The translations under genes were made by a program, and so were the position numbers. Shown piece after piece: positions 17,601-33,189 of a stretch of 64,000 bases of DNA; the stretch's first letter is position 1; every line of letters begins with the position of its first letter. The DNA comes from Caldisericota bacterium (lineage in GTDB: Bacteria; Caldisericota; Caldisericia; JAAYUI01), in assembly GCA_029548865.1 (NCBI GenBank), contig JAKPMO010000028.1, forward strand, positions 39,629 through 103,628. The letters run 5' to 3'. The notes under the pieces are model-generated. The model did no database searches, was not told where the DNA came from, and saw only the letters and a program-made list of their open reading frames with translations.

Positions 17601-17640
17601 AAAAAAACTGGCTTGGGTATCCCCAAGATTACCCAGGCCA
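17601..17640 (-). terminator. Intrinsic terminator ending the head-tail operon
   Basis: Minus strand TGGCCTGGGTA-N10-TACCCAAGCCA (one mismatch) then GTTTTTTT. Confidence 0.65.
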
Positions 17641-17668
17641 GCCGATCACTGAAATTACAGCTCAAAGC

Positions 17669-18304
17669 CTACGCAAACTTCTTCCTCACCTCCACAATCC
17701 CACCGTCCCTGAGAAAAACAACCCTGAACCCAAGCGCCTCGCAAAACCAGCGCAGGGGGACAACGGCATGCCCCATGTCCAGCGCCAGCTTCAACGGCAT
17801 TTTATTCGGCTTGCCCATGACAAGCGCCTGATCAGAGTTTATCGCCACCCTCACAAGCGGGATATCCGCCGCCTGTCTTGCCTCTAAAAGTGGGAAATAT
17901 TTTCCCGGGCAAGCCGTTGGTGCAATCGCGCTGTGTGGCAAAATATTCTCTGGTACAATGCCATGCCGTGCGGCAATGTCCTTTATCAGGGCAAGGAGTC
18001 CTGAGAGCTGTTTTTCCTCCATCGGGCCTTTTTCAAAGTTTCCCATGCAACAAACCCCGATTGAGTTGAAATTGTGAGCCCCACACCTGCTCTGTGACTG
18101 ATTGTCAGCCCCGCAGTGCGCCGCGACCAAACCCTCTTTTTGCCAGCCCTCCCACGAGCCGTCAGAGTAAACCACATAATGATATTCCCTGGGGTTGAGC
18201 TTTTTTGTCGCCGCCACAAGGGCCTTTTCCTTTGCCACACCAATTTTTCCGTTCACAAAATGGTGGAGCACAAGATATTTCGGGTCATCAAGGATGTATT
18301 CCAC
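17669..18304 (-). CDS. N-acetylmuramoyl-L-alanine amidase (Amidase_2/PGRP-like endolysin) with C-terminal stalk-like domain
   Basis: LVLHH, YHYVV, AAHCG, NSIGVCCMGNF, LPHS..TACPG zinc-amidase motifs; C-terminal VVPLRWFCEALGFRV. Confidence 0.85.
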   Translation of the reverse strand: MEYILDDPKYLVLHHFVNGKIGVAKEKALVAATKKLNPREYHYVVYSDGSWEGWQKEGLVAAHCGADNQSQSRCGAHNFNSIGVCCMGNFEKGPMEEKQLSGLLALIKDIAARHGIVPENILPHSAIAPTACPGKYFPLLEARQAADIPLVRVAINSDQALVMGKPNKMPLKLALDMGHAVVPLRWFCEALGFRVVFLRDGGIVEVRKKFA

Positions 18305-18307
18305 TGC

Positions 18308-19018
18308 TCACCTCTCCGGCGCCGTCACCAGCGTCACCCTCAGCCTTGGGGTGGACGCTGTTGCCCAGTACGCCCAGACCGCCAGCCCTGAAGAGGGCAC
18401 CCTGTGCTTGGCTATCGGGATGTTGATGTTGTAGTTTGCGGCCTCAAGCTGGGGTGGTGTGCAGTATGTGTCCGGGTTGATGTCCCAGGGCACCGCCATT
18501 GGCGGGACCGGCTTGTCGCTCCAGCCCTGGCTGACGACTTTTGGAAAATCAAACCTCGGTTTTTTGATGTCTGTCAGGTTCACAAGCCCGGTACCTGGGT
18601 TTTGGGTCGCCGTGAGGATGGCCACCGATCCTTGCAGGACCTCACTGGAATATGGCGGAGACGGCGGAATGATCCAGTCCGGAGCCACGGAGATGCTGAT
18701 GCCATAGACATTTGCAAAACCTGTCAGCGTGATGATTTTCTGCCACTGCATGCTCTGGGTGAGGTAGCCCTCAAGGTTTGGCAATGGTATGTATTCGCCA
18801 TTCTGGTCGCCAGAGCCCGAGAGCAGGAGCATCGATGAGGTGATACCCGATTTCGCGGAACCAAAAAGCTCCTTCAGGCTGTATGACCACAAAACAGTTT
18901 TTGCGCCAGCTTCAAGGAGTGTTTCGCCAACTTTTTCCTTTGTGTAGCCAACCAGGCTGCTGACGGCGCTATTTGCCCTTCTGCATTGCGCCCATGCCAC
19001 TATTTCGTATCCCCTCAC
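18308..19018 (-). CDS. Hypothetical protein, probable tail tip or receptor-binding component
   Basis: GTGA overlap with the upstream gene; position in the operon. Confidence 0.6.
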   Translation of the reverse strand: MRGYEIVAWAQCRRANSAVSSLVGYTKEKVGETLLEAGAKTVLWSYSLKELFGSAKSGITSSMLLLSGSGDQNGEYIPLPNLEGYLTQSMQWQKIITLTGFANVYGISISVAPDWIIPPSPPYSSEVLQGSVAILTATQNPGTGLVNLTDIKKPRFDFPKVVSQGWSDKPVPPMAVPWDINPDTYCTPPQLEAANYNINIPIAKHRVPSSGLAVWAYWATASTPRLRVTLVTAPER

Positions 19019-19740
19019 AGGCCCTCCCCAAAGTATGCGCTGCCATGCTGGTGCTGGGACTCAAATGCAATCCCTGCCGACCAGAAGACGTTTGCCGGTG
19101 TCGCCTCGACCAGAAAATGCGTGTATGTGGTCGAGCTGGCGTAGCCAAACAGCTCGAAATAGGGCAGTGTGCATGAGGCATGCGAGACCATGTGCGGCAT
19201 TTCCGGGGTGTTCATCCAGCAATATGGGGCCCAGAATGGAGAAGGAATAATATGCAAGGACGCAGGTGGTGGTGAACTATTGTGGCAGATTGGAACCTGG
19301 CAGATGGTTTTTTCTCTCGTCTGGTTCATCTCCTCGTCATACTGCCTCATGATCAGCTTCACTGCTTGCGGGACATACGACCCTGCAAGCCCCAGGCAGT
19401 GGATCCTGCCTTTTCCCTTATAGAAACTGGCAATCGGTCCAGAATCAGGCAGTGCCTGTTCCGGATAGCCAGCCGATTTTGCCGGGAGGTGCGCATCAAG
19501 GTGCAGGTACATTGGCAACTGGTTCGGGTTCACCAGATCACTTATCTCCCTTGATGTCGCCTGGAGTGCCTGGGAGAGATCGGCGAGGAGCGCGTCAAGT
19601 GAAAGCGCGAAGTTTTCAAATTTCCTTTCAAGGTCGACGGCAAGACTGTCGTCATCTGTCTCGTCCATCTGGGAAAAGGCATTGTTGTACAGTCTCTGCG
19701 CCTCGGAAATTATCTGGCATATCGCAGGGGGCAGTGCCAT
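19015..19740 (-). CDS. Hypothetical protein (N-terminal helical/coiled region plus beta domain), probable tail-associated
   Basis: Start reassigned to ATG 19740 (MALPPA), coupled by TGATG to a small upstream ORF. Confidence 0.6.
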   Translation of the reverse strand: MALPPAICQIISEAQRLYNNAFSQMDETDDDSLAVDLERKFENFALSLDALLADLSQALQATSREISDLVNPNQLPMYLHLDAHLPAKSAGYPEQALPDSGPIASFYKGKGRIHCLGLAGSYVPQAVKLIMRQYDEEMNQTREKTICQVPICHNSSPPPASLHIIPSPFWAPYCWMNTPEMPHMVSHASCTLPYFELFGYASSTTYTHFLVEATPANVFWSAGIAFESQHQHGSAYFGEGL

Positions 19741-19820
19741 CAGACACCCCCAGGCATGATGAAAATCCCTGACAGACAGAAAATGGCTGACAGGAATACT
19801 GTGACATAAAGCAGGTTCAT
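19740..19820 (-). CDS. 26-aa single-transmembrane peptide MNLLYVTVFLSAIFCLSGIFIMPGGV
   Basis: GGGAGGG SD directly after the upstream stop; TGATG overlap with the next gene; fully hydrophobic; below the ORF-track cutoff. Confidence 0.6.
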   Translation of the reverse strand: MNLLYVTVFLSAIFCLSGIFIMPGGV

Positions 19821-19829
19821 TTTCCCTCC

Positions 19830-21113
19830 CTATTTGACAAGCAGGCAACAACCATCAAAGCTTGCCGTTCCACCATCATTTTGTGCCAGCTGGGCATAAA
19901 GCTTGACTTCAAAGGGGCCCTGCCCCTGAACAGAAACTGAGAGCCTGACCCATTTGTCTTTGAATGCTTCAGCAGCTTGCCCAGCCCTGCAGTCAAGGTA
20001 TGTTGAAACTGCTGGCGCTCCAGATGGCACTATTTCTATCTTTGCCGTCTGGTCGGTGCGCACCCAGCAGGAAAATGTGATGTTTCCGGAATGCGTGCCT
20101 GGATGTGTCTGGTGACAATAGCTCCAGCCAGTGTTTGGGGTCGCTGTCAATCTCAGGGAAAAATCGCCCAGAATCCCCTGGCCCTTCGCTGTCTGCAAGG
20201 CACCGAGGCCACCAGTTGCCCAACCGTCCGGCATGCTTCCGGTCCAGGAGTCAAAGATCGGGTTCTTGAGTCGGAGAATCCCAAGCCCGGTGTCGCCTGT
20301 TTCGCAAAATTCATGGGACATTGCAGGCATCATGGCCTGCGGCCCTGCCGGACTTGGAGGGTTAAATTCATACAATGAAAGGTGCTGCTCGATGTAGCGG
20401 TACGTCGCCCTGACAACCGGCGCCATCTCCTCAACCTGCTTGCCTGTGGCATGTGAAAACGATAGTGCCCCAGAAAGCGTTATCGTGTTCGGCAAAACAA
20501 CTGACTGGACAATGACCGCTTCATCCTGCGAGGTCGTCTCACCCTTAAGGATAGCCATGTCCCCAGGAGAAAACCCGGCAACATCATCGACAATAATTGA
20601 CATTGCACCGGCTTGTGCCTGTGAAACCAGATATGCACTTCCCCTGATCTTTTGCGGAAAGATGATGGAGCCATTGCCAAAATCAACCGAGTACCCGGAT
20701 TCACTGATGATGGCACCATTGACCGTCACAACGGGCACAGGCTCCCGGAGCCAGTCGCCATGCACCGACTTGAGGGTCGTCCAGTCCTCAGTCGAGAGCT
20801 GCTCTTCGTTTACCAGATAGGAATAGAAAGAGTCGCACGAGAGGAGCAGCTCTGAAGCCTGACCCTGTTCCATGACCGACCCTGACGCATGAAAGGAGTT
20901 CGGGCCAAAATCAGAATATGATTTTGCAAAGACGCTCTCAAAAGTCACTTTTCTGCCATCCACCTCAATGGGCCCAACCTCCTGGTAGTCAAAATAGACC
21001 CTCTCCTGTGGCAGGTGGAGTTCCGATAAAATGCCATTCCCCCAGCCTGCACTCACCGGGTCCCTGTTTGCCCCACCCTTTACCGGCTGTATTTTTGGTC
21101 TTGAAGGCAACAT
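19830..21113 (-). CDS. Putative tail tip protein with inserted shared beta domain and C-terminal carbohydrate-binding-like jelly roll
   Basis: YSVDFGNGSIIF...VRATYRY split by the shared insert; NPIFDSWTGSMPDGW...FSCWVRT...FDG resembles a CBM. Confidence 0.6.
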   Translation of the reverse strand: MLPSRPKIQPVKGGANRDPVSAGWGNGILSELHLPQERVYFDYQEVGPIEVDGRKVTFESVFAKSYSDFGPNSFHASGSVMEQGQASELLLSCDSFYSYLVNEEQLSTEDWTTLKSVHGDWLREPVPVVTVNGAIISESGYSVDFGNGSIIFPQKIRGSAYLVSQAQAGAMSIIVDDVAGFSPGDMAILKGETTSQDEAVIVQSVVLPNTITLSGALSFSHATGKQVEEMAPVVRATYRYIEQHLSLYEFNPPSPAGPQAMMPAMSHEFCETGDTGLGILRLKNPIFDSWTGSMPDGWATGGLGALQTAKGQGILGDFSLRLTATPNTGWSYCHQTHPGTHSGNITFSCWVRTDQTAKIEIVPSGAPAVSTYLDCRAGQAAEAFKDKWVRLSVSVQGQGPFEVKLYAQLAQNDGGTASFDGCCLLVK

Positions 21114-21123
21114 TTTTCCTCCC

Positions 21124-21615
21124 TCATGAAAACTCTATTTCCCAGACAACAGTCTTGCTCACCTGGTCGGTCTTTGGCTCATAAACGCCGCAGAGCGCAA
21201 ACACTGTGCTATCAGTAAGGAGCAGTCCGGCCTTGCGCCATGTGAAATTGAACTCCGGCTGGCCAACAAAGTTGGTTACTACGAGCTTTTTTCCCAATGC
21301 GTCCACCTGCTCCACGCTCCTCAACGAAACACTCCCGCCAAGCGTTGTGTCTTTTGGTGTTGGCGGTGTTGCAGAAGTCGAGGCGGCAAACCACTCGATC
21401 CTGAAAACCGGTGAGAGCGTCCTGCCCGATTGCCTGACTGGAGAGCAAAGTGCCCTCGCGATGGCCCTTATTCCTGCGTCTGTTACAGTATTTTCCCTTA
21501 TCTGGTCGCCAATTGTCACTCTCCCGTGGAGCCTCCCCTTCAGTGCAAAATATGCACCTGCCTCATCGGAGACCTCTCCAATGGCCTGCTTAATGTTTTC
21601 CAGCCATTCTTTCAT
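21124..21615 (-). CDS. Putative minor tail protein
   Basis: ENTVTDAG...KAGL...KTDQVSKTVVWEI pattern typical of siphophage tail proteins; ATGA coupling. Confidence 0.6.
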   Translation of the reverse strand: MKEWLENIKQAIGEVSDEAGAYFALKGRLHGRVTIGDQIRENTVTDAGIRAIARALCSPVRQSGRTLSPVFRIEWFAASTSATPPTPKDTTLGGSVSLRSVEQVDALGKKLVVTNFVGQPEFNFTWRKAGLLLTDSTVFALCGVYEPKTDQVSKTVVWEIEFS

Positions 21616-23279
21616 TGTCCCTCCCATTCGCATGCCCCAAAAAGCGACTCACCAAAACCGTAGTCGTTTTTGGGCAGAAAACTCTTTATTGACGGCATAA
21701 AATCCATCACCCCAACCCCAGAAGAAAGCCCCGATGCCGCATTGATGATGTCCCCTTCAGATGCCTCCTGCTCAAGCTGGGCAAGCCTCTTGATGACATC
21801 GGCAAGCAGGCTGGCATAGAGATTGGGGTCGAGGCTGGACTCGCAAACCATCCTCCATTGCATCGGCGTGATTTCGTGTGTGACCCTCGAAATCCTGGCC
21901 CCTTCACATGCCCCAAACCTCTCAAACTCAAAATCGGCAGCAACGCCGGCTCTTATAGGAACTGGATAGACCATTTGCCCGCCCTTGTACCGATACACGG
22001 TGGCCTTGCCCTTCCTCGGCGGGTCTTTGTGGGATGAAAGAAGGTAGTCGGCATATTTGTAAAGTATCGCCCAGTCTTTTATTGCAGGCTTGGTGACTTT
22101 TGGCAGGTCTATCTGGACGCCATACTTTCTGACAGACTCCTCGTCTGCCTCGGAAACATAGCTTATTTTGAGCTTTCTTTTGTATTTGGCCATGAAGCCT
22201 AGGAGCCCCTTGGCTTCCTTGACGCTCCTGCCCAGGTATACCCATCCACCCAGGGCTTCTGCTGTCGCATCTGGACAATATAGGGCATCGAAATTGACTG
22301 TAATCTTGTGGTCCGAGGAGAATGTCCCGGGAAGATTGGTGTCGGCCTCATCATGCAAAATAAGGGACGACAGGGCCGGTTTTGTGTCCAGTGGCTCGTT
22401 GGTCTTTACAACAGAATTCTTCACGGAAAGACCGTCCGTATCACAATCAAGCAGAACAAGGCTGCCCCTTTCAAGCAAGCTGTCACCAGAATCAAAGACG
22501 GCATAGACTGAAAGACTGGAACATTTGTACCATATCGGAAAGGCAAACGGATAAAGCGTGCAGATGTTCGGGTCAGGCGTGTCTGGCAACTCGGAGGAAA
22601 GGATGTACTGCTTTGTAAAATTCTCCGCATCGCCCTCCCCACCCTCGACCCAGACCCTGTTTGCAAGTGTCGAATAATCAGGCTCGAAAGGTGTTGTCTG
22701 CCCTTTTGACATGTCGCAGTGCGGGTCCCTTATCGTGACCTGGAGGTGCTCCAGAAATGCCGGGCCGAAATAATGAATCTTTTGCGGTGAAACGCGAAAC
22801 ACCCATCCTGTAAAATCGCAGAGTGTTTTGAGGCACTGCTCCACGCTCTGCCCGCCAAATTTCACCGAAACGGTGTCATCACAGTCCCTGACCAAGTCTA
22901 CCGAGTGTCCGGGAAGGTGTTTGGCCACAAGAGACTTGTAGATGTCAGATGCCCTCCATTCCATGTAGTGCTCGTTGACCATACGATGTTTGCACTCGGC
23001 GGACCAGTCCCTTGCCTCAAAAACCAGCCTCGTGCCAAGGGGTGTCTCCTCTTTTTTCGGCACCCCGTCACACCTCCCTCCAAAAACCACCTCCCCGCCC
23101 TCGCCAAAAACACTGACCTGGCAAAAAGGCAGGTACTGGGGGATTTGGTCTGCCTGAAGCAGGACAGTTTCAATTGTGCAAGATGATGGTTCGCCGCAAG
23201 CCTCGGTTATTTTTATCGAGGCAACAAGGTCCGTTATGTCCTGATTGCCCGTTTCAACCCTTGATATGCCGCAGAACAT
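21612..23279 (-). CDS. Putative tail hub / Tal-like minor tail protein
   Basis: Follows the tape measure gene; VFGG..., LKTLCDFTGWVFRV, ANRVWVEG, ESVRKYG features. Confidence 0.65.
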   Translation of the reverse strand: MFCGISRVETGNQDITDLVASIKITEACGEPSSCTIETVLLQADQIPQYLPFCQVSVFGEGGEVVFGGRCDGVPKKEETPLGTRLVFEARDWSAECKHRMVNEHYMEWRASDIYKSLVAKHLPGHSVDLVRDCDDTVSVKFGGQSVEQCLKTLCDFTGWVFRVSPQKIHYFGPAFLEHLQVTIRDPHCDMSKGQTTPFEPDYSTLANRVWVEGGEGDAENFTKQYILSSELPDTPDPNICTLYPFAFPIWYKCSSLSVYAVFDSGDSLLERGSLVLLDCDTDGLSVKNSVVKTNEPLDTKPALSSLILHDEADTNLPGTFSSDHKITVNFDALYCPDATAEALGGWVYLGRSVKEAKGLLGFMAKYKRKLKISYVSEADEESVRKYGVQIDLPKVTKPAIKDWAILYKYADYLLSSHKDPPRKGKATVYRYKGGQMVYPVPIRAGVAADFEFERFGACEGARISRVTHEITPMQWRMVCESSLDPNLYASLLADVIKRLAQLEQEASEGDIINAASGLSSGVGVMDFMPSIKSFLPKNDYGFGESLFGACEWEGQ

Positions 23280-23282
23280 CGC

Positions 23283-25562
23283 CTACCCCCTGAAATTGAC
23301 AAGCTCCAGAAGGGCTTTCTGGGCTTCAATGACTGTTTGCTGGGCAATCTCCCTGGCAAGCGAGGATATGTCCCCTTCGTAGCCGCCAAGGTCAAGATTG
23401 AATGTCTGATTGATTTCAATCTTTCCGGCGCCAGTTTGCATGCCTGTCCCATAACCACTGTCTGATTGCCACGGCTTCCCTTCGCCCAGGGTGTTTGTCA
23501 GGTCAATATTTCCCGTCTGGTAAAAGAGCTTTGGCAATACGACATCATCAAGATATTTTGCTGTCAGGGTCGAGGCCTCGGAACTATGGGTCGCAATCCA
23601 TGCCGGATCAACCAGCTTCCAGTAGCCAGTACCTGCCCATCCACCATAAAGCGAAGGATTGGACTTACCCTTGCCAAGCTCCTCCTGCCTGGCCGACACA
23701 GCCTGCCTGAACAACTCGTTTGCGGCCGCCGAAACGGCTTCTTCAAATGACGATCCTGAGCTGACAAGGGAATTGACAAGATTCACCTGCTCAAGGCTGG
23801 CCCCGCCCCAGAGCCCATCGCCTTCCCTTGGTGCCAACTGCGACCAGGTCTTTCCATCCCTTTTTATGCCAAGTGAGTCAAGCAGTTCTTTTAAATAGGC
23901 GTTCTTCCCAGAAACATCATACTGCCATGCGCTTGTTCCTTCGGCGTTTGAGAGCATGCCATACAGCCTCTGACCTATCTCATAGGCCGACTTCAGTCTC
24001 AATGATCCTTCGGAGACAGGGTCAATAGTGGTGTTTGGCGATCCGTTCTGGTCAAACAGGATCTCCTTCAAAAACCCAAGATTGTAATCAAACCCGATCC
24101 CAAGCTCCTTTTGGGCCCTGTCTAGTGCTGAAGTGTTGATTTTTCCTTTGTATTTTTCAAGAAAATCTCGTATGGGAAGGAGTTTGTCTGCCTGCTCCAC
24201 CGGAACTTGCGTCAGCCCCAGTCCGATTGGTGAGCCCCAGTAAAGTTTTTCCAGATCGGCAAGCGTCATCTTTGGCGCCAGGGCCTTGAAAAGATCATTG
24301 CCAACTATGCTCGACGGAAGGCCGGAAACATCCGCAGAAGAACCCTCAAGCAGTTTGCCAAGGCCGGTATTTTTCAGATCATCAGGGACCTGGTATGAAT
24401 CGTTTTCCTTGAAGCCCGACAGATACTTGATGTAGTTGAGCATCGCAAACCACGGCTTTTTGAGTGAAAGGTCCCAGTTTCTTGAGCCGCTTTTGCCCTC
24501 CCAGAGCCAGTCAAGCATGTTTTTTGCCCCAAGCTCCCCGGCACCAAACGGGTCAAGTGGGGGGCCCTGAAGGCCCTCTTTTTGCCTTGCTTTTTCCCAT
24601 TCCTCCCTTGTTTCGGGAAGGATCATTCCCTCACCAAACCAGCCATAATCGCGCCATTTTGAACCAAGCTCGGAAATCTCCGTATCGGTGACCTGCCCCG
24701 ATCTTGAAAGGTATTTGGTCGCCCAGGCAGGGAAAGCGCTTTGCTTACCTCCTCCACCCAGAGACGTTGTCAGCACCGAGAACATGGCATCAAATTCGCT
24801 GGCATTCCTGTATGATGACACCGCCCTGGAAAGGCTTTCTTTAATATCGTCGATGGACGTGTTTAGCCCGTCTGGGAAGAGGCCGCCAAATTTTTCGCCT
24901 TGCGGTGCAGACCTCAGGACAGAAAATGAGCTGGTGATACCCTCTGCAATGCCAGCAAGCCTTGAAGGGAGAGAAGAAAACCCGTCAAAAAGCGCTTGGG
25001 CCACCCTCTCTGATGACCCGCGAAGAAAATCTTCCCCGCTCAAAAGGCCTTGTTCCAGCATCTTTGCAAGGCGCTTTGTCCAGTTGGTCGGGTCCTCTTT
25101 TGAAAGCGGCCCAAGTCTGGCGGGAGAATGCAACTCGAGAAAATCGGAGATCACCGAAGCTATGGAGCTTGCGGCGCTCTCGACCTCTGATAACCCGGAA
25201 AGCAGCCCCTGTGCAAACATCTTTGCAGAGTTTACCCCAAGCCCTGCCATCATTGCCGGAATGGGCGAAGTGGACAGGGCTACAGAATTGCAAAAGTTTC
25301 TTCCAAAATTTGATCCGATCTCCTGCGCTGTCCCAAGGAGCCTGTCGCCCTGTCTTTTCAGGTTCTCATCAAGCTTTCCAAAGGTCTCGGAAAGCTTGTC
25401 CAGTGATTCCCCTGCTTCTTCCCAAGCTTTTTGGGCTTCCCGGGCCTTTTCACTTGCCTCCTCGGCCGAGGAGGCAAGCAGGTCCAGGGATTTTTTTGCC
25501 TTTTCGATCTCGCTGGTTGCGAGGTCTTTTGCCTCAATTGTTATGGTTGCCTTTTCCTGCAT
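23283..25562 (-). CDS. Tape measure protein
   Basis: N-terminal ITIEAKDLAT plus coiled coil; LELHSPARLGPLS motif; C-terminal IEINQTFN; directly after the tail chaperone; start ATG 25562 after a G-rich SD. Confidence 0.75.
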   Translation of the reverse strand: MQEKATITIEAKDLATSEIEKAKKSLDLLASSAEEASEKAREAQKAWEEAGESLDKLSETFGKLDENLKRQGDRLLGTAQEIGSNFGRNFCNSVALSTSPIPAMMAGLGVNSAKMFAQGLLSGLSEVESAASSIASVISDFLELHSPARLGPLSKEDPTNWTKRLAKMLEQGLLSGEDFLRGSSERVAQALFDGFSSLPSRLAGIAEGITSSFSVLRSAPQGEKFGGLFPDGLNTSIDDIKESLSRAVSSYRNASEFDAMFSVLTTSLGGGGKQSAFPAWATKYLSRSGQVTDTEISELGSKWRDYGWFGEGMILPETREEWEKARQKEGLQGPPLDPFGAGELGAKNMLDWLWEGKSGSRNWDLSLKKPWFAMLNYIKYLSGFKENDSYQVPDDLKNTGLGKLLEGSSADVSGLPSSIVGNDLFKALAPKMTLADLEKLYWGSPIGLGLTQVPVEQADKLLPIRDFLEKYKGKINTSALDRAQKELGIGFDYNLGFLKEILFDQNGSPNTTIDPVSEGSLRLKSAYEIGQRLYGMLSNAEGTSAWQYDVSGKNAYLKELLDSLGIKRDGKTWSQLAPREGDGLWGGASLEQVNLVNSLVSSGSSFEEAVSAAANELFRQAVSARQEELGKGKSNPSLYGGWAGTGYWKLVDPAWIATHSSEASTLTAKYLDDVVLPKLFYQTGNIDLTNTLGEGKPWQSDSGYGTGMQTGAGKIEINQTFNLDLGGYEGDISSLAREIAQQTVIEAQKALLELVNFRG

Positions 25563-26114: not shown

Positions 26115-27355
26115 AGGAAGCTGTACTTTCCGCAAACAAGTTCTGCCTTGACGGCAAAACCATCGCTCTGGCTGAATGTCGCGCTGGCCTTCCAGCTCTG
26201 GGCTGTTTTTCTGCCAACCTGGACCGGCACGGAACACGCAGTCATGTAGCATTTTGGCAATGTCACCTTCAATGAGCCTGGGATTGCAGATGATGGGCCA
26301 ATCAGGGCGCCCTGCATCTCAACCACACAGGCGAAAGGCTTTGTCTCATTCTTTGCTGCATAGTCCACCCCATCTCCGCCCAGGAACCTCTGCAATTCGG
26401 CATCGTCCTCAAAGAGGGCCTCCGCATCAAGCTCTGCCGATATGGTGCCTGCGCTGCCCTTTGAGATAAATGCACCGCTGGAAAGCGTCCTTTCCGATGC
26501 CTCCAGCCCGTTTGAAACTGAGAGTTTGAGGCTCTTGACCAGAGACGTTTTGGGCGTTCCCTCAACCGTGATTGATGAGCCGATGGGCTTGAAAGATTCG
26601 CATTCCTGATAGACAGGTGTTGCCCTCGTGTTGTGGGCAGACATCCTTGAGCCAACAAATGAGGCAGAAATAGAGACCGGTTCTGCAGGCAATATCGAGA
26701 TTGAGCAATTTTCTGTCATCATGCCGGAGAACCTGACGGCAGAGTGCCCGTCAGGAGCACCAAGGTCAAGTTCCCATGTCTGGCTGGGCACAGTTCCTGA
26801 CTGGTTGAAAGTGTGTTTGTAGGCAATATCTGAAACATTCTCCACGACTGGCGACCCGAGGTCATGGGCAAAAATCAGCCCACCAGAAACCCCTTTTGCC
26901 TCGATGCCAAGTGTTGTTCCATTCACAGAGACAATTTTTGCAAACTCGCAAACCTGACCGGTGCCGATGGCCACCCAGTCGTTTACTGCCAGGCCATCTG
27001 CCGAAGCAACTTCTATCGTTGTGGCGCCAGCTGGTGCCTGTGAGGACAGCGTTGTTGATGCCTCTCCAGATTTTGCTTCCGGCATGGCCACGACGCTGTC
27101 CTGGCCAAAGAGCCAATACAGGATTTGCCCCACGGCAACAGGGTTTGCATCAAGCGTTATGTCCCCTTTTTGTGTCCAGCCCTTCTGGACCATCTCCGAT
27201 TGCTGGGCCGAGTTGCCTATCAGAAACCTTTTTGACATGTCCCTGCCCCAGCTGACATTGCAGGAGAGCACCTTCCAGAAATTGTCCGGTGCCACAGGCT
27301 CTGCAAACTGCGTCTCCCTCCCAAAACCGAAATAGCTGGATTCGCCTTTTGGCAT
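26111..27355 (-). CDS. Major tail tube protein with inserted ~70-aa domain
   Basis: YFGFGRETQFAEPV N-terminus, YKHTF...PSQTWE, SISASFVG, VTLPKC; no sheath gene nearby. Confidence 0.75.
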   Translation of the reverse strand: MPKGESSYFGFGRETQFAEPVAPDNFWKVLSCNVSWGRDMSKRFLIGNSAQQSEMVQKGWTQKGDITLDANPVAVGQILYWLFGQDSVVAMPEAKSGEASTTLSSQAPAGATTIEVASADGLAVNDWVAIGTGQVCEFAKIVSVNGTTLGIEAKGVSGGLIFAHDLGSPVVENVSDIAYKHTFNQSGTVPSQTWELDLGAPDGHSAVRFSGMMTENCSISILPAEPVSISASFVGSRMSAHNTRATPVYQECESFKPIGSSITVEGTPKTSLVKSLKLSVSNGLEASERTLSSGAFISKGSAGTISAELDAEALFEDDAELQRFLGGDGVDYAAKNETKPFACVVEMQGALIGPSSAIPGSLKVTLPKCYMTACSVPVQVGRKTAQSWKASATFSQSDGFAVKAELVCGKYSFL

Positions 27356-27364
27356 TTTTCCTCC

Positions 27365-27772
27365 CTAGTTTTCAACCTCTACCTGGAGGCCAACAGCACC
27401 CTGAAGGACAAACTGGTTTTCATGGTAAAATGGCTCCAGTGAAAAATTTGTTTCGACATGCCTGACCAGATATGACGGCAGAAATGTCGGCTCGGTTGCT
27501 TCTTCTTCGATCCTCGAAATGATGTCGGCAAGCGCAAGGTATCCCTGTTCCCTGCCCTGATAGTCCCTTGAGAGCACACTTATTGTGAGGCCAATGATGG
27601 ATTCCCTGCCACCGCCTATTGTTGTTGCCCTTCCTTCCGAAGGCGCAATCGACAGGGCAAGGCATGGAAACTGCTTTGCCAACTGTCTTGGCCCCAGAAC
27701 TATCTCGACACCCGGAAACTTCATCTCCAGGGCATCTTTCGCCTGTAGCAGAACCTCCCTGTATGGCGTCAT
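27365..27772 (-). CDS. Tail terminator / completion protein
   Basis: 135 aa, QFPCLAL motif, immediately upstream of the tail tube gene. Confidence 0.6.
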   Translation of the reverse strand: MTPYREVLLQAKDALEMKFPGVEIVLGPRQLAKQFPCLALSIAPSEGRATTIGGGRESIIGLTISVLSRDYQGREQGYLALADIISRIEEEATEPTFLPSYLVRHVETNFSLEPFYHENQFVLQGAVGLQVEVEN

Positions 27773-27906
27773 TTTCGCCCTCCCGATACCTTTTTGCCAT
27801 CTCCATGGCTGGCCAAAGATTCAAGCTTTTCCCTGATGCTTTTTGCAACATCCTGAACCTTATCTGCAAAAACCGCTTTCCCCAGATCATGCTTTATCTG
27901 GATCAC
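27769..27906 (-). CDS. Short 45-aa ORF in the neck region (possibly a reduced neck/morphogenesis gene)
   Basis: GTGA overlap upstream and ATGA overlap downstream, exactly filling the gap. Confidence 0.45.
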   Translation of the reverse strand: MIQIKHDLGKAVFADKVQDVAKSIREKLESLASHGDGKKVSGGRK

Positions 27907-28277
27907 GAAGCCACCCAGAGTCCAGATGGGACACCCGATCGTGGCAAAAGCTCTGCCGAAACCCTGCCATCCCTTATCTCGCGGAGCATGTCCAGTGACC
28001 TCTTGTAAAGGTTTTGTGCCTGCTGGCACCATGAATCGCCCTGCTCCTGGAAAACGTATTCAAGGCAAAACGAGCACGCCAGATCAACCGTTATTTCCCT
28101 GATTGGCAGAGGTACAAGGTCTGGCACCTGGAAGTTGCACGAAACAACAAGGTCAACCATTCTGCTGGCCTTCAAAATCGCCTGTTCGATGGAAAACTTG
28201 TTCTCGGAGGTATCTGGAATGACTTCCTCGCCAATTCCCCTGAGTGCTTTTCTGACATCCTGAATGCCAGCATACAT
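27903..28277 (-). CDS. Head-tail connector/adaptor (Mu gp36 / DUF1320-like)
   Basis: MYAGIQDV, AILKASRMVD, VPLPIREITVDLA, LYKRSLDMLREIRDG. Confidence 0.7.
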   Translation of the reverse strand: MYAGIQDVRKALRGIGEEVIPDTSENKFSIEQAILKASRMVDLVVSCNFQVPDLVPLPIREITVDLACSFCLEYVFQEQGDSWCQQAQNLYKRSLDMLREIRDGRVSAELLPRSGVPSGLWVAS

Positions 28278-29456
28278 CTATTTCACCTTCAGGTTGCTCA
28301 AAACCACTACAGCATCAGGATTTTCAAGGGCACAATCGCACCTGATTGTCACAACAAAGTAAGTCACACCCTCTGTTGCCCTGCGCTCTGTCTCGATGGT
28401 CACGTCCTGCTGGATACCCAGCACAAGATTGCTTGTGTCACAAAGCATGACAAAAGTTCCGTCCAGTGTGCATTCGACAACCTTATCGCCTGACTGGTGC
28501 GGGAACACCAGAGCGCTATCCAGTGTGACATCAGTTGCCACAACAGAGGCCACTTTCCTGATTTCACGGGTCGCCCCTTCGCCAATGGCCAGTGTGTCGC
28601 CCTGCTGGACGTTTGTTGCGGATGCGACTTCTATTGTTGTGTCTCCAGCAACAGAGGCCGATGACAGGGTGGTATTTCCTCCGCCAGAAACAGGCACCGG
28701 AAGATTTGTAGGAACAAGAGCGCATGGCGAGATCGTCACTTTGCCGAAGCTCATGAGAGAATCTCCGGTTATTGCGTCGTCTCCAAGAGGGGTTGTCCTG
28801 CTTCCAAGAGCATCAACATAGTCCTGGTACAGGTCGTCGCTCATTATGAACCTGAGATTTTCTCTTTTTCCCCTGTATTTGCTGGACAGGGTCTTCAGAG
28901 TCCTCGAGAGTTTTTCCGCGCTAATGTCCCTGTCGGTGAAAACGGTCTTGGCATCTATGACATGGCCTTCGGAAATGGCCCTCGGATACCACCCTTCAAC
29001 CATCTCCCAGATGTGATTTTTTGGCAGTGCCCCGGTGTCTTGCCCCATGAGGTAGGCATATTCAAGCTGGTTGCCTATCTGGTTTGCCACCACCCTCATG
29101 AGGTGGTCAGCAAACGATTCGCCTTCAATATTGTCCATGAGCGCATCATCCGCAATCGGCACAACGGCCTTCATGGCCTTCGAGGTGAGCGTGACAGCCG
29201 ATGTCGAGACATCGGAGAAACCGTCTCCTGAAGAACCGTAATTTCCAGGCCTGAGAACCTCCTCGCCGATGCCCAGTCTCACAAGTTTTTTTGTGTTCCC
29301 CCTCATCCTCTCGACCCTTGCATTGTTCTTGAGAAACGAGGCATCAACAATGTAGTCAATAAAACGGTTTACGTCCTCTGTTGCAAGGCCGATCCTCTGG
29401 GCAAAAGACCCGGAAGTTATCGCAGCTTTTGAAAGCAGTTTTTCATTCCCTATCAT
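28278..29456 (-). CDS. Major capsid protein (HK97 fold, PBSX XkdG-like) with inserted domain
   Basis: RFIDYIVD, LMDNIEGESFADHLM, LSSKYR, NLVLGIQQDVTIE, ALENPDAVV; start ATG 29456 after GGGAGG. Confidence 0.85.
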   Translation of the reverse strand: MIGNEKLLSKAAITSGSFAQRIGLATEDVNRFIDYIVDASFLKNNARVERMRGNTKKLVRLGIGEEVLRPGNYGSSGDGFSDVSTSAVTLTSKAMKAVVPIADDALMDNIEGESFADHLMRVVANQIGNQLEYAYLMGQDTGALPKNHIWEMVEGWYPRAISEGHVIDAKTVFTDRDISAEKLSRTLKTLSSKYRGKRENLRFIMSDDLYQDYVDALGSRTTPLGDDAITGDSLMSFGKVTISPCALVPTNLPVPVSGGGNTTLSSASVAGDTTIEVASATNVQQGDTLAIGEGATREIRKVASVVATDVTLDSALVFPHQSGDKVVECTLDGTFVMLCDTSNLVLGIQQDVTIETERRATEGVTYFVVTIRCDCALENPDAVVVLSNLKVK

Positions 29457-29467
29457 GTTCCCTCCCG

Positions 29468-29746
29468 TCATGAAAGGAGCGCCACGACGGACGCCCACAT
29501 TTTTGGCTCGGCTTTGTCGTCGGCCATAATTGTCTTTGTCTTGAGGAGCCCTTTCTCCATCGCCCCAAGCCTGAGCATGGCATCATCAAATTTCTCCTCG
29601 AGCGATGACAAGGCCTCGGAAATCGAATCCATCCTCTCCTCCATCTCCTTTATCCTTGCGGACAGGCTTTCAAGGAGCTGCTCCGGCATGCATTCGAAAT
29701 CGTCCTTTTTTTCTTCCCCTTTTTTAAAAAACCTTCCCAGCATCAC
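29468..29746 (-). CDS. Small coiled-coil protein, probable scaffold
   Basis: Heptad-rich acidic helix between protease and capsid genes. Confidence 0.55.
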   Translation of the reverse strand: MMLGRFFKKGEEKKDDFECMPEQLLESLSARIKEMEERMDSISEALSSLEEKFDDAMLRLGAMEKGLLKTKTIMADDKAEPKMWASVVALLS

Positions 29747-30175
29747 TTACTCCTTTCTTTCGCAAACAAGAATGAACCCGGCTTCCGGGTTTGCCGGCTG
29801 ATCAACAACAGAAATCTCGGCAATTGTCATCCCGGTAATGACATCAACGGTTTTCCCCTCAAAGTTTCTCGGTCTTTTCGATGTGACCACACCCCCAACA
29901 GAAAATCCCTTGTAGATTCCCCTTTTTATCTTGTCCCAGCACTTCTTGTCGTAGATGTCGGCACCAACCAGGAGACCTTTTGGCATGAGCGAGAGGTGCG
30001 ATGCAACACCTATTGCCCTTGGTTCATGCATCTCCCTGACATTTCTCCACCTCGAATAGGCGCCAAGGGCTTCCTTTACAGCCCCCGTGCTTATGATGTC
30101 CCCCTGTGAATCCAGTGCTTCTGTGGAGGCCCAGCCCCATACGGTCCCCAAAGCGTCCCCGTTTTTGCCTGCCAT
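29747..30175 (-). CDS. Prohead protease (HK97/XkdF-like)
   Basis: VWGWASTEALDSQGD, REMH, YKGFSVGG, EISVVDQPANP. Confidence 0.85.
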   Translation of the reverse strand: MAGKNGDALGTVWGWASTEALDSQGDIISTGAVKEALGAYSRWRNVREMHEPRAIGVASHLSLMPKGLLVGADIYDKKCWDKIKRGIYKGFSVGGVVTSKRPRNFEGKTVDVITGMTIAEISVVDQPANPEAGFILVCERKE

Positions 30176-30190
30176 TATCCCCTCCAAATG

Positions 30191-30216
30191 AAAAGGCCCT
30201 CCACTAAAAGAGGGCC
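30191..30216 (-). terminator. Internal stem-loop / terminator-like element just upstream of the protease RBS
   Basis: Minus strand GGCCCTC-TTTTAGTG-GAGGGCC-TTTT. Confidence 0.5.
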
Positions 30217-30245
30217 CAGTGTTTTTTGTCTATACTAAACAGCAA

Positions 30246-30536
30246 TCAGTCTGGTTTCTTTTTGAAGAACCTCGCAAGCCTGAGCGGCGCGAAAGGTGCA
30301 TTGAATATGAGCCAGATCACAACCATTGCTCCCCATGCCGTGTAGACATCCAGTGGTGGTGCCGGCACAAAAAACCTGTATATGGTTATGTTCCATAGCC
30401 ATGAAACGACATAGCCAAGCCCATAAAACCACCCAGCACAAAGCAGAAGACCCGCCGGCACTGCCCAGATGGCGTCTAGTTTTGAGTCAAAGTAGAGCTT
30501 TCTGTCAATTTTTGAGAATCTCAGTGACATGGGCAC
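30246..30536 (-). CDS. Small two-TM membrane protein
   Basis: Two hydrophobic segments and a basic C-terminus (RFFKKK); starts 3 bp after the portal stop. Confidence 0.55.
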   Translation of the reverse strand: MPMSLRFSKIDRKLYFDSKLDAIWAVPAGLLLCAGWFYGLGYVVSWLWNITIYRFFVPAPPLDVYTAWGAMVVIWLIFNAPFAPLRLARFFKKKPD

Positions 30537-30539
30537 ATG

Positions 30540-31730
30540 TTACCGGTTTTCTCCAGCCCCTTCAACCTCCCTGGCCGGGAGGCCCATCCTCGCCCTGGCC
30601 TCATCGGCTGAAATCATCCCGGAATCAATGAGTATTTTGTCTGTCTGAGCCCTGCAAAGCTCGTCTTCGGCATCCATTTCGTTGAAGCGGAACCTCCACC
30701 CAGAAATCCCCAGTCCCTCCCTGATGATTGTCCTGTTGATTCTTTCTTCCAGGAACCTCTGCCTCGGGGCAATGACAAGGTTTTTAAAATTTTGCAGCTG
30801 TGACTGGCCGGTCCCACCGCCAAGATTGCCGCTCTCTATTATGCCAAGCAGGTGCGGTGGCACACCGTGCGCAACAACCATCAGGTCACGGTTCATCTTC
30901 CTGTAGTCAGCAAAAGAGGCCTCCTGCGGTGTTGTCTGGATCGGCTTTATCTCCCCGGTGACACCCTGTGGGAATTGCAAGACCATTGTTTTGTGTGGAT
31001 TGCCCTTAAGATTCGACATGTAATTCTGGAGCTCCTCCTTGTCCTTTGGGGAGAGCGAGCCACCGGATATGACAAGGCAAAACCTCGGCGTGGCATTGTT
31101 CTCAAAAAACTGGATGTTGTAGTCTCTTGCCAGGATATCGCCCATTGTGGAGCCTATTGCGGCCACCGAATCAGGAAGACCGTAGAACTGCGAGGAAGGA
31201 TTGTATTTCCTGAAATGCACGATCTCGGATGGACTGCCAGCATCGCTTTCAAAAGTCTCGCCACCACCAAAGCTGGCAAATTTCCTCTTCTGGGTGCCTA
31301 TCGTTTGCACAAAACCGCCGTCCCTGAGCAGTTTTATGTTCCTGGCAGAAACATGGTACAGCCTCCCAACTTTCCCAAATGAATCCCTTGTGGCCTCAAG
31401 GTATCCATTCCCAAGGCATTCCAGGTCAACCATCACCTGGAACAGAAGCTCATCAAAAGTCTGGTTGGGATTACAATCCTCAAGGAACTGGAACAACCTA
31501 TTTCTGGCTTCTTTTCCACCACCCTCATCCACAAGCCTCCAGCCCTGCCCAACCGTGAACTGGGCTTTTACCTGCACTGCCCTGTAGTAGATTTCATTGC
31601 TCTGGTAAAGCTCAAGCAGCTTCTCAAAGTCCAGGTACGGGGGTGGTTCCACCACCCCAGATACACCTAGCGGTTTTTCTCTGACCTGTCTTGTCTCGCA
31701 TGAAAGAAAATCAAGCTTTGCCTGCTTCAT
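30540..31730 (-). CDS. Phage portal protein (PBSX-type)
   Basis: LECLGNGYLE, EIVHFRKY, FYGLPD, FFENNATP, AHGVPPHLLG, ISADEARARMGL. Confidence 0.9.
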   Translation of the reverse strand: MKQAKLDFLSCETRQVREKPLGVSGVVEPPPYLDFEKLLELYQSNEIYYRAVQVKAQFTVGQGWRLVDEGGGKEARNRLFQFLEDCNPNQTFDELLFQVMVDLECLGNGYLEATRDSFGKVGRLYHVSARNIKLLRDGGFVQTIGTQKRKFASFGGGETFESDAGSPSEIVHFRKYNPSSQFYGLPDSVAAIGSTMGDILARDYNIQFFENNATPRFCLVISGGSLSPKDKEELQNYMSNLKGNPHKTMVLQFPQGVTGEIKPIQTTPQEASFADYRKMNRDLMVVAHGVPPHLLGIIESGNLGGGTGQSQLQNFKNLVIAPRQRFLEERINRTIIREGLGISGWRFRFNEMDAEDELCRAQTDKILIDSGMISADEARARMGLPAREVEGAGENR

Positions 31731-33124
31731 AAAACCTCCAGAATGTCGACCCTCGGCGATGTTCCCTGCCTCGCAAGTGAAACTGCCATTTCAAAAGCAT
31801 CTATCATGTCATCATGCTCCCCTCCCGGAAACTCCAGCAACTCCCTGACAAAAAGCTCGTGACAGGGCGCAACGCGGACTTTCCCTGACTCAAACAGCGG
31901 CTGGAGTGCCCTTATCCTCGACTGTTTAGGCGCAAGCGGGGTAATTGGTCTGACAGGGACTGCCAGATTGCCTGAAAGGTGTTCTATTAATGCTCTCTGG
32001 TATGCTACATCCTCTATCCCCAAAAGAAGCGGTCTGTGGAGCTCACAGGAGTCTCTCACGGCCTCCGCCTGCCTTGAAAAACCGAAATGCCCCCTGATGC
32101 AATCGAGAAGATATATGGTGCCAGCAGAATCAACGCCAACTGTTACCATCGCAAACCAGTCCGAGCCCTCCCTCTCGGATATGGCCAGATCACAGGCCGT
32201 ATAAACCGACAACGATGACCTCTCAGGGAGCAGATCATAGAACAGGAGCCATTCCCTCCTGAAAATCCTGCCAAGATAGAAGCTCACATCGTTCTGCTTT
32301 TCCCTGTCAAACATCGCCTGGCCTGTCATGAGCCTGTCCAGAAGCAATCTGTCTATCCCCCACATTTTGGGCCACAGCACCTGCCACTTGCCCTCCTTCT
32401 TCACGCCAAGCAGCTGGCCCTTGTCGCCAAAACTGAAAAATTCGGATATTGGCATCCCTTTTTCCAGCGCCTCGGTGAAATTTGATGGCCATCTGATGAT
32501 TGCCTTCTCTGAAATAAACTCCCAGGCTGGGTTTTTCCCCAATTTGCCGTAGAGATCTTCCGGATGTTTCCTTGTTCCCACAACAAGAAGCCTCGTCTCT
32601 GGCAGGCAAAGCTGGAGCAGCGACCCGTAAAACCACTCTTCGACTTCCTCTCTTGCCTGCGGCGTCTGCGTATTGCGGTCATCAAGCACATCGTCGCAGA
32701 TTATCAGGTCATAGTGGCCACCGGTGAGCGACCCAAGGATGCCCGAACAGGAAACGTTCGGCTCCTTTGAGTCGCAGCCCTCCAGCCTCATTTCGGTTGC
32801 TGTTGCACTGGATAGTTTCGGTGCGCACTCTGCCTGCCAGAGCCTGATGCAGGCCGATTCAATCTGCCTCAAAAGCCTTGATGCAAGCTGCTCGGTCTTT
32901 GAAACAACCAGTATTCTTGCCCCAGGATTTAACAAGAGGAAGGCTTGTGAAAATATCACCGTCCATATAGTAGATTTACCATGACAACGTGGCGCAAGCT
33001 GGACCCTCCTGCTCCATGGGTCATCAAAACACTTTATCCATTTTTTTTGATGGGCAGGAAGATCAAATTGCAGTTTTTTGCATAAGTCAAATGTTTTCTC
33101 AGAAAGGGTTTGTGGCACTCCCAA
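31727..33124 (-). CDS. terL: Terminase large subunit
   Basis: APRCHGKST Walker A, LIICDD Walker B, ACDLA and HDDMIDA nuclease motifs; probable TTG start at 33124 after GGAGG. Confidence 0.9.
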   Translation of the reverse strand: MGVPQTLSEKTFDLCKKLQFDLPAHQKKWIKCFDDPWSRRVQLAPRCHGKSTIWTVIFSQAFLLLNPGARILVVSKTEQLASRLLRQIESACIRLWQAECAPKLSSATATEMRLEGCDSKEPNVSCSGILGSLTGGHYDLIICDDVLDDRNTQTPQAREEVEEWFYGSLLQLCLPETRLLVVGTRKHPEDLYGKLGKNPAWEFISEKAIIRWPSNFTEALEKGMPISEFFSFGDKGQLLGVKKEGKWQVLWPKMWGIDRLLLDRLMTGQAMFDREKQNDVSFYLGRIFRREWLLFYDLLPERSSLSVYTACDLAISEREGSDWFAMVTVGVDSAGTIYLLDCIRGHFGFSRQAEAVRDSCELHRPLLLGIEDVAYQRALIEHLSGNLAVPVRPITPLAPKQSRIRALQPLFESGKVRVAPCHELFVRELLEFPGGEHDDMIDAFEMAVSLARQGTSPRVDILEVL

Positions 33125-33160
33125 TTGCCCCTCCCTCCCGTGGGTTCCCAACGATAGTGA

Positions 33161-33189
33161 ATTGTAATCTCAGGTGCTCTGGTTGTCAA
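33161..33189 (-). promoter_or_regulatory. Sigma70-type promoter driving the head-tail operon
   Basis: Minus strand TTGACA (33189-33184)-N17-TACAAT (33166-33161), about 36 nt upstream of the terL start. Confidence 0.7.

Follow-up and report, generated by a model that had tools for sequence, protein, structure and literature searches.

A phage-derived head-tail gene cluster kept at one locus in Caldisericia, a candidate gene transfer agent

Introduction

Why would a bacterial genome carry phage head, tail and lysis genes among host genes, with nothing recognizable of a phage life cycle? The question is raised by contig JAKPMO010000028.1 of a Caldisericota bacterium (assembly GCA_029548865.1, hereafter G000). 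In the 64,000-nucleotide stretch of this contig that was analyzed (the window), a minus-strand run of about 15.5 kb comprises 17 larger genes, from the large terminase gene TerL (starting at 33124) through an amidase gene (17669). A first-pass annotation had proposed that this run encodes a new gene transfer agent (GTA). According to the part of PMC11841831 available to us, few lineages are described as having functional GTAs, and telling a new one from a dead prophage is difficult. The cluster stands at a fixed locus, has descended vertically, is under purifying selection of host strength and has lost life-cycle genes; it shares a promoter palindrome with unlinked genes, which decay where the cluster is lost. 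We are highly confident that it is part of a host-owned, multi-locus, phage-derived particle system. The probability that this system is an independently evolved GTA, known here from its genes alone, is put at roughly 0.6.

Results

One locus in three genera

The host is a Caldisericia metagenome-assembled genome, and 6 of the 7 genome records with a close capsid are Caldisericales or Caldisericia; the habitats are sludge, bioreactor and biofilm. Among the 11 genomes of the family, TerL was found in 8 and a full-length capsid gene in 9, in single copy. TerL was detected in none of 30 genomes of other families, and the capsid profile had no match in 82 other genomes of the phylum. Terminase_6C occurs exactly once in each positive genome, with no further Terminase_6C gene in any family genome. 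The first-pass annotation had suggested a search for syntenic clusters in relatives. All seven relatives fetched, from three genera (that of G000, g2 and g3), have an identical gene order, with TerL head-to-head with the same host gene. Two one-contig genomes are among those in which order and 5′ neighbour are conserved, and in four of four metagenome loci TerL lies beside the same host surface-protein gene; one of these loci may itself be where the G000 genome came from. Across genera, cluster proteins are 30-71% identical, head proteins ranking above the flanking host genes (32-49%). In G005 the contig ends 123 bp from the start of the flank gene, and the cluster probably escaped assembly there; in G008 TerL and portal fall off contig ends.

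Purifying selection and vertical descent

Ratios of nonsynonymous to synonymous divergence (dN/dS) were obtained by Nei-Gojobori counts. For G000/G001, dN/dS was 0.044 (0.032-0.058) for head genes, 0.073 for neck, tube and tape measure genes, 0.079 for tip genes, 0.092 for amidase plus orf96 and 0.069 for seven flanking host genes. The corresponding dS was 0.42 for head, 0.38 for tip and 0.41 for host genes, and 0.38-0.45 throughout. G000/G003 gave similar selection values, TerL dN/dS was 0.04-0.06 within a genus, and head dS of G007/G009 was 1.62 against 1.59 for rpoB. Overall, cluster dN/dS was 0.04-0.13 at synonymous distances from 0.25 to >1.6; selection is thus purifying and dS is host-like. 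Head genes are the most conserved part of the cluster, which suggests that DNA-filled heads matter. The tip genes are not hypervariable, and within-genus dN/dS of tip and fibre genes (0.076-0.079) is that of host genes.

Trees of TerL, capsid, tube, hub and orf427 recovered the three genera with starred support, matching rpoB (5 of 6 trees), so that the TerL and capsid trees agree with the host tree at the genus level; with only three genera such congruence is a modest test. In the portal tree g2 did not resolve. The capsid and tube trees gave (G006,(G008,G010)).

Cluster dS between G000 and G002 (0.25) is far under their rpoB dS (0.87). Identity between G002 and G000 is uneven, ranging from 71% to 99%, with short tracts that are nearly identical (L244-L256 versus G000 contigs C16 and C28). 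Since the patchy identity is also seen on another contig, it points to recombination or a mixed bin and not to mobility of the cluster. Tracts of 0.35-1.6 kb at 98-100% identity to G000 numbered 16 in 223 kb aligned for G002, 3 in 174 kb for G001 and 0 in 38 kb for G003. Their reading as a GTA footprint was rejected, as transformation or a mixed bin would explain them just as well.

Contigs of two DNA runs showed flat depth over the cluster and flanks, both ends bridged and no joint listed; the coverage comparison that had been called for therefore gives no sign of excision in these contigs, which drop rare forms.

Gene content, boundaries and expression signals

The features of the cluster, in the order of transcription, are as follows.

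33335-35866, plus: divergent host surface-protein gene, a flank outside the system that marks the conserved locus; beside TerL in relatives
33239-33254, strand not assigned: operator-like palindromic site AT[AT]GT[AG]-N4-[TC]AC[AT]AT
33161-33189, minus: promoter TTGACA-17-TACAAT of housekeeping-sigma type, occupying the terS slot of related phages
31727-33124, minus: TerL, psiM2_ORF9/TIGR01630 type (phrog_38, E 2e-84)
30540-31730, minus: portal (PF04860, E 5e-40; PBSX-type TIGR01540 below cut-off)
30246-30530, minus: genus-specific 94-aa protein with two hydrophobic segments, between portal and protease
30194-30217, minus: internal terminator-like hairpin ahead of the protease gene
29747-30175, minus: prohead protease, XkdF/S78-like (PF14550/PF04586)
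29468-29743, minus: putative coiled-coil scaffold, labelled by position
28278-29456, minus: HK97-fold major capsid protein (phrog_1623, E 3e-61)
27903-28277, minus: head-tail adaptor (PF07030, phrog_195)
27769-27906, minus: 45-aa open reading frame (ORF) in the slot of a 125-134-aa tail-completion gene of other genera
27365-27772, minus: probable tail terminator, from position and conservation; no family match
26111-27355, minus: non-contractile tail tube with inserted beta domain (PF18906, E 9e-11)
25788-26114, minus: putative tail assembly chaperone, ending in slippery heptamer AAAAAAC (25791-25797)
25534-25791, minus: 85-aa -1 frameshift extension of the chaperone, with a downstream hairpin
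23283-25562, minus: tape measure protein, 759 aa (weak PHROG matches)
21612-23279, minus: baseplate hub with predicted gp27/gp44/Tal-like fold in the N-terminal third (structure model)
21124-21624, minus: tail tip or fibre-attachment protein (weak PHROG tail-fibre matches)
19830-21113, minus: probable fibre or receptor-binding protein that carries the shared beta domain and, at its C terminus, a carbohydrate-binding-like domain (NF048003, E 0.005, below cut-off)
19740-19820, minus: 26-aa hydrophobic micro-ORF with its own ribosome-binding site, in the slot of a 93-100-aa gene of other genera
19015-19740, minus: conserved tail-region protein with no assigned family (conservation)
18308-19018, minus: conserved tail-region protein with no assigned family (conservation)
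17669-18304, minus: Amidase_2 endolysin with a host-type Cu_amine_oxidN1 C-terminal domain (PF01510, E 3e-18)
17601-17643, minus: intrinsic terminator, hairpin at ~17608-17643 plus U-tract

Gene content and order (TerL, portal, protease, scaffold, HK97 capsid, adaptor, terminator, tube, frameshifting chaperone, tape measure, hub, tip genes and amidase), all on the minus strand, are as first described. Family profile matches back the terminase, portal, protease, capsid, adaptor, tube, tape measure and amidase; the putative scaffold, tail terminator and chaperone, which have no family match, are named from position, size and the frameshift. Junctions between cluster genes are mostly -7 to +10 bp, and the wider gaps contain a terminator-like hairpin, the frameshift extension and two conserved micro-ORFs. 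The run had been called uninterrupted. Its order and tight junctions agree with this; the additional 94-aa gene and hairpin between portal and protease, and the two micro-ORFs that replace longer genes of relatives, do not.

The scanned ORFs of the window matched no integrase, replication or repressor family, and the att-like repeats at the cluster ends were at chance level, none convincing. G000 has a single tyrosine integrase, on a different contig. The integrase, att sites, replication genes and immunity genes expected of a temperate prophage were thus not found, in agreement with the first reading.

Its promoter and terminator also proved real: TTGAC[AT]-N16/17-TAC[AT]AT stands ahead of TerL in all nine loci. 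Of the host genes said to lie on both sides, the 5′ surface-protein gene is conserved; the 3′ neighbour (16295-17482) occupies a variable slot, which holds a low-GC membrane protein in G000, a 608-616-aa AAA_15 ATPase, possibly a defence protein, in G001-G003, and other genes in g2 and g3. Contigs of two RNA runs, X19 and X20 (only 5 and 9 short contigs, in which DNA carry-over is possible), end at 30236 and 30238, 19-21 bases short of the internal hairpin at 30194-30217, a weak hint of attenuation. No contig of these runs lies on the capsid gene, which, given how few and short they are, says nothing about silence.

Head genes. The true start of TerL is 33124 and not 33151. Walker A, Walker B, coupling and nuclease motifs are intact, and the motifs are present in all nine orthologues. 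An apparent stop in the G001 gene was rejected as a lesion, since it sits upstream of the true start. In g3, TerL has an N-terminal extension of ~45 aa with no recognizable domain (L018:2724-4265; L033), which might conceivably take the place of TerS. The 94-aa gene is found in 4 of the 11 family genomes, all of G000's genus, has a dN/dS of ~0.09 and is covered by short RNA-run contigs. In the place of protease and scaffold the other two genera have a single longer protease ORF (231-243 aa). A structure model of the capsid protein supports the HK97 fold (confidence score pLDDT 81). This protein, the most conserved of the cluster (~70% identity across genera), carries an inserted 80-aa beta domain at residues ~255-335. 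The 45-aa ORF is conserved in four of four congeners, and the longer gene of relatives matches phrog_26. The 80-aa beta domain is common to capsid, tube and orf427 (window 28450-28700, 26840-27090 and ~20400-20650), and the same domain is seen in giant host surface proteins of the family (E ~1e-5).

Tail and lysis genes. A tail sheath (PF04984) was found in none of five genomes, with a positive B. subtilis control. The frameshift signal, described earlier as intact, is so: the heptamer AAAAAAC stands before the chaperone stop in 10 of 10 loci and opens a conserved -1 frame of 67-85 aa, and the hairpin that follows folds better than 200 of 200 shuffles (z -3.75). The hub model (mean pLDDT 53) is confident at residues ~4-175 only and unreliable beyond 175; Foldseek matched it to Mu gp44-type hubs with E 1e-7. 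The C-terminal part of the tape measure has no known domain, and an atlas search with it gave no family, as did one with orf278. No toxin or nuclease domain was found in the tape measure, hub and tip proteins. The 26-aa micro-ORF is present in four of four congeners. The amidase at 17669-18304 is the only Amidase_2 of G000.

In g2 the chaperone and tape measure genes of the cluster are separated by a host prenyltransferase gene of menA type (L056:6115-7062; L021:7448-8422; L024:7778-8749), with a terminator-like hairpin after it in G006 and G010; the gene survives in G004 after cluster loss. REP-like palindromic repeats have invaded intergenic regions of the cluster in G008 and G010 (L056 and L057 ends; G010 gaps), where they coincide with contig breaks.

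Unlinked lysis genes, a RinA-like gene and a shared palindrome

The cluster had been described as self-contained, which did not hold. Holin, XhlA-like and RinA-like regulator genes lie on other contigs, and the palindrome at 33239-33254 is beyond the end (33189) first drawn for the cluster. In G000 an XhlA-like gene and an LL-H holin gene (holin PF09682, E 2e-16) form an unlinked pair (C23:5271-5954; L283:5271-5954) between two UbiA-family genes and a surface-protein gene. The PF09682 holin is present in 6 of the 11 family genomes, none of them in g2, where the cluster itself has a three-helix holin candidate. In g2 and g3 the in-cluster amidase is lost or eroded (G008 keeps one) and Amidase_2 occurs elsewhere; g3 has a cassette of XhlA-like gene, amidase and LL-H holin. 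The XhlA-like label comes from a weak hemolysin PHROG match of the g2 in-cluster gene, and also from what we take to be the layout of the PBSX lysis genes.

The RinA-like gene of G000 (C27:13734-14090; L300:3235-3591) lies beside a PLD gene and purD. Its product, 116-119 aa in the family, is basic (pI 9.2), has a C-terminal sigma4-like helix-turn-helix (HTH) and matches phrog_36 (E 5e-6), scoring under the TIGR01636 cut-off (18 versus 31.9 bits). It is found in 7 of the 11 family genomes, with one weak match among 82 outside genomes.

The 16-bp palindrome AT[AT]GT[AG]-N4-[TC]AC[AT]AT is exact in 8 of 9 cluster promoters, and present with at most one mismatch in all nine. It is exact in 5 of 8 lysis promoters, against a background of 2 in 1194 G000 upstream regions, and the cluster site is one of only two exact matches in G000. 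These counts are partly circular, because the motif was read from the same promoters and, in g2 and g3, its right half coincides with the -10 box. A less circular test is the genome scan with the palindrome that led to the RinA-like gene beside purD. In 5 of 7 genomes the promoter of this gene carries a site that deviates from the motif at no more than one position, and in all four g2 genomes the site is in tandem. Apart from the regulator, the other exact matches in G006, G007, G009 and G010 pointed to no additional phage-like gene; in the G010 scan the control matched as often as the real motif (5 versus 4).

In G004, which has lost the cluster, the unlinked amidase and RinA-like genes are broken by in-frame stops, and rpoB, DprA, LexA and flank genes have none. 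This co-decay, a single loss event, ties the three loci to one function. Unlinked lysis and regulatory genes also make the system more GTA-like.

SOS control was considered and rejected: lexA is present in 9 of the 11 family genomes (it was not found in G000 or G001), no dyad is common to lexA and cluster promoters, and known SOS boxes had no match. The lexA promoters of the family (L264-L272) have in common TTTTCGGT around the -10 box and a downstream TGAAC, possibly an undescribed SOS box.

The small terminase slot

No ORF precedes terL in the slot of the small terminase gene (terS) at the cluster loci, and in nine of nine this slot is filled by the host-type promoter. For comparison, among the 51 viral TerL loci for which the upstream DNA was long enough, 48 show an ORF of 70-300 aa in the same orientation ahead of terL, and 4 of 6 such ORFs tested match TerS PHROGs. 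Phmmer with the 48 upstream ORFs of related phages gave no match in G000, and the TerS family PF03592 was found in none of five genomes. Phrog_6299 had no match in the 11 family genomes or in any control and is uninformative. The earlier statement that no TerS gene is recognizable thus agrees with profile and phmmer searches, which a short, divergent TerS encoded elsewhere would escape.

Relation to phages and composition

The best-ranked matches in GenBank phages are 30% identical for TerL, 29% for the capsid and 33% for the portal. Among TerL homologues, 17 are 48-97% identical and the next at most 36%. In a 58-row TerL tree the cluster proteins and 15 unlabelled proteins form one clade with a stem of 1.28 substitutions per site and SH-aLRT support of 100. 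The sole IMG/VR record within this clade is the cluster itself, from its promoter to the following unrelated gene; none of 23 other IMG/VR contigs falls inside. Nearest TerL and nearest capsid belong to different phages. Uncultured 30-80-kb tailed phages of IMG/VR (such as L166, L170, L174 and L181) and phages with psiM2-type TerL (such as L070 and L073) resemble the cluster in capsid (38-44% identity, same inserted domain), portal (29-36%) and TerL (33-38%). The phages with the nearest capsids share portal, protease and inserted beta domain with the cluster and differ in the tail. Unlike the cluster, these phages have additional genes for head morphogenesis and metabolism, and a TerS-like ORF stands ahead of their terL. 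No close phage relative was therefore found, where the first-pass annotation would have given way to complete temperate phages as closest homologues.

No other 15.5-kb window of G000 is as GC-rich as the cluster (0.52 versus a median of 0.455). GC at second codon positions (GC2) is 4-7 points over small host gene sets in six of six genomes, and GC at third positions (GC3) tracks that of the host from 0.36 to 0.58 across genomes. In G000 itself, GC1, GC2 and GC3 are all raised against 1204 host ORFs. At aligned sites the cluster proteins contain fewer carbons than phage homologues in 44 of 44 comparisons for the capsid, 33 of 34 for the portal and 59 of 64 for TerL, counts to be read with the homologues being not independent. 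The copies of low-GC G010 are cheaper too (37/37, 33/33 and 48/53), and the outcome is the same in GC-matched subsets of 8 and 9 phage loci. Raised GC1 and GC2 and cheap amino acids are described for RcGTA proteins in the accessible part of PMC7360931. The cluster repeats this signature, GC3 excepted.

Other genes in the window

A type III restriction-modification-like island at 1410-8920 includes a ResIII helicase, an IrrE-like M78 peptidase, DUF4411, an N6/N4 methylase and a PLD-domain gene. A low-GC AAA_13 ATPase gene at 41137-43404, possibly for defence, is 78% identical in G003 and absent at the site in G001.

Discussion

The fixed locus, rpoB-like trees, low dN/dS, and the lack of a close phage and of any excision sign bear out the original view of a host-maintained particle system that is not a decaying prophage. 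How it may work can be outlined. An ancestral siphovirus late module would have been captured once, by the ancestor of this Caldisericia family. A palindrome-binding regulator would keep the near-consensus promoter off in most cells; the binder may be a repressor or an activator. Induction is probably helped by the RinA-like protein and, in G000's genus, by transcription running on through the internal hairpin. A small number of cells would then assemble HK97-type heads and non-contractile tails, and TerL, acting with no sequence-specific TerS, would load the heads with fragments of host chromosome by headful cutting. Holin and amidase would free the particles, and the conserved tip would attach them to close kin, where ComEC/DprA-dependent uptake and recombination could take the DNA in (ComEC is present in G000, DprA in five of five genomes). 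Of the six points of the GTA definition given in the consulted part of PMC9662315 (a Caudoviricete-derived tailed particle, full endogenization, often over several loci, vertical co-diversification, mostly random host DNA, a head too small for its own genes, and delivery), three were found here: tailed-particle proteins, endogenization over several loci and mostly vertical descent. It is a tentative proposal that the cluster represents a new, independently domesticated GTA family of Caldisericota that packages host DNA with no TerS at all, from three scattered loci (head-tail, lysis and a phage-derived late regulator) under one host operator.

A number of observations weigh against a GTA. The system is read from genes, so that particle, packaged DNA and transfer are predictions. 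Some lineages are losing the cluster: G004 is without it, its menA gene persisting near the flank gene; G008 keeps protease to chaperone and the lysis genes, with an IS3 element where tape measure to orf236 would be; stops are seen in orf169 of G006 (and of L152) and in the tape measure of G009; and G000's genus has shortened two neck or tail genes. The hub and orf427 trees pair G000 with G002, contrary to rpoB. In G000 GC3 is raised too (0.58 versus 0.47), unlike in RcGTA. The common operator has gaps as well. The holin and regulator promoters of G000 have no significant palindrome site; the RinA-like gene was not found in the three g3 genomes, which carry the palindrome (the syntenic check there landed on a PLD paralogue and not on the orthologous site); and in all three the palindrome also precedes a metabolic operon (L286, L290, L298), presumably hydrogenase/sulfite-reductase-like, a hint that a host regulator tied to redox state or hydrogen acts there. 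What binds the palindrome may therefore belong to the host. TerS confers packaging specificity, and that of known GTAs has no DNA-binding domain, in the available text of PMC11841831 and PMC7947584; according to the former, known GTAs all keep a truncated TerS. None being found here, either a TerS is hidden elsewhere or packaging is different. Finally, PBSX is likewise conserved and packages host DNA, yet it kills (PMC8347963, in the part available).

This last point leads to an alternative that we regard as unlikely, a domesticated killer, PBSX-like or an F-type tailocin with a retained head, which may package host DNA and would be kept for killing competitors. The portal, protease and capsid appear to be of PBSX-type families, PBSX packages 13-kb pieces of random host DNA and is bactericidal (same source and extent), and the C-terminal part of the tape measure, with no assigned domain, leaves room for such an activity. 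What speaks against a killer is the missing sheath, the head and terminase as the most conserved part, tip and fibre genes that are conserved like host genes and track the host tree across genera, and the negative search for toxin and nuclease domains. The host could also use the cluster for another job, as a DNA reservoir or repair template, for regulated lysis and extracellular DNA release in sludge granules, for adhesion via the beta domains borne by head and tail, or as a phage decoy. The beta domain shared by capsid, tube, tip and host surface proteins, the sludge, bioreactor and biofilm habitats, and the lysis genes retained in G008 despite its half-deleted tail would suit such functions. 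We nevertheless find them doubtful: an intact motor, frameshift and hub exceed the needs of lysis or adhesion, and the inserted domain, being present also in capsids of the nearest true phages, was inherited.

Phage readings, decaying or active, jointly retain little probability. The loss, deletion and single stops listed above are what a cryptic prophage remnant, or a satellite-like module for a helper phage, would leave, and IMG/VR lists one copy as a virus. The record, however, runs from the promoter to the following unrelated gene. A dN/dS of 0.04-0.13 over such synonymous distances, a promoter, operator and frameshift conserved across genera with otherwise dissimilar intergenic DNA, a host menA gene inside the g2 cluster and the lack of a second Terminase_6C gene in any family genome make this reading largely refuted and very improbable. 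An active temperate phage reintegrating at one site would account for the high GC of the cluster (52% versus a genome median of 45%, the highest 15.5-kb window). It is contradicted by the integrase, att repeat and replication genes that were not found, by flat DNA depth with both ends bridged and no joints, by dS equal to host dS and by GC3 that follows the host, and we give it almost no credence.

The GTA reading, if right, extends the class to a deep-branching anaerobic phylum of sludge and digesters. The cheap-amino-acid signature would then recur in an independent origin, which bears on why hosts keep costly, lethal systems, and a TerS-less motor, if true, offers a direct test of whether random packaging needs TerS. 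Unlinked accessory genes that share an operator and decay with cluster loss provide proof of domestication from sequence beyond synteny and dN/dS. No description of a Caldisericota GTA or of such a cluster was found in the literature searched; subscription papers and supplements were outside it, so a survey table could list the cluster.

Comparison with known systems

With PBSX the cluster shares the lysis logic of XhlA-like gene, holin and amidase, a fixed conserved locus and, it appears, the portal, protease and capsid families. By family profiles, the XkdE/XkdF/XkdG likeness of the head amounts to 129 bits for TIGR01540 (cut-off 166) and a PF14550 score just above cut-off; phrog_1623 matches in B. 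subtilis but also in E. coli. Unlike PBSX, the cluster is half as large and has no sheath, no Terminase_2 TerS and no in-cluster Xre/Xpf cassette (the contractile sheath and the linked Xre repressor, Xpf sigma factor and TerS are marks of PBSX), its TerL is of TIGR01630 type, and its tips are not hypervariable. A PBSX-like fibre region is hypervariable, according to the part of PMC8347963 consulted. The initial characterization as a PBSX-like head on a non-contractile tail thus appears to stand for the portal, protease and capsid families, stands for the missing sheath, and fails for the psiM2_ORF9-type TerL. An F-type tailocin is a tail with neither head nor terminase; both are present here.

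The basic, sigma4-like HTH protein resembles the RinA/Ltr late activators of Gram-positive phages, as described in the available part of PMC3753634; it differs from them in that its gene in G000 lies beside purD, far from the cluster, instead of immediately preceding terS, and in that no copy was found in g3.

RcGTA and CcGTA (Rhodogtaviriformidae) are alike in having a ~15-kb head-tail cluster with no life-cycle genes, a siphovirus-type tail, vertical descent and several loci (PMC9662315, same extent). The Caldisericia cluster is in a different phylum and has a different TerL type, no terS before terL, a RinA-like regulator and Amidase_2/LL-H holin lysis. Its capsid matches no RcGTA PDB chain at E<=1 (9% identity in the fold match). 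Membership in Rhodogtaviriformidae goes with RcGTA homology and an alphaproteobacterial host, and neither is seen.

FpGTA of Faecalibacterium, compared by description only from the accessible text of PMC12946183, is podovirus-like and 10.5 kb long with a TerS candidate, unlike the long-tailed cluster, where none was found. The two are alike in having unlinked operons (two in FpGTA), an anaerobic host, lysis genes apart from head genes and patchy loss. Distinctive of the Caldisericia system, beside a TerS that was not found, is a three-locus regulon with co-decay.

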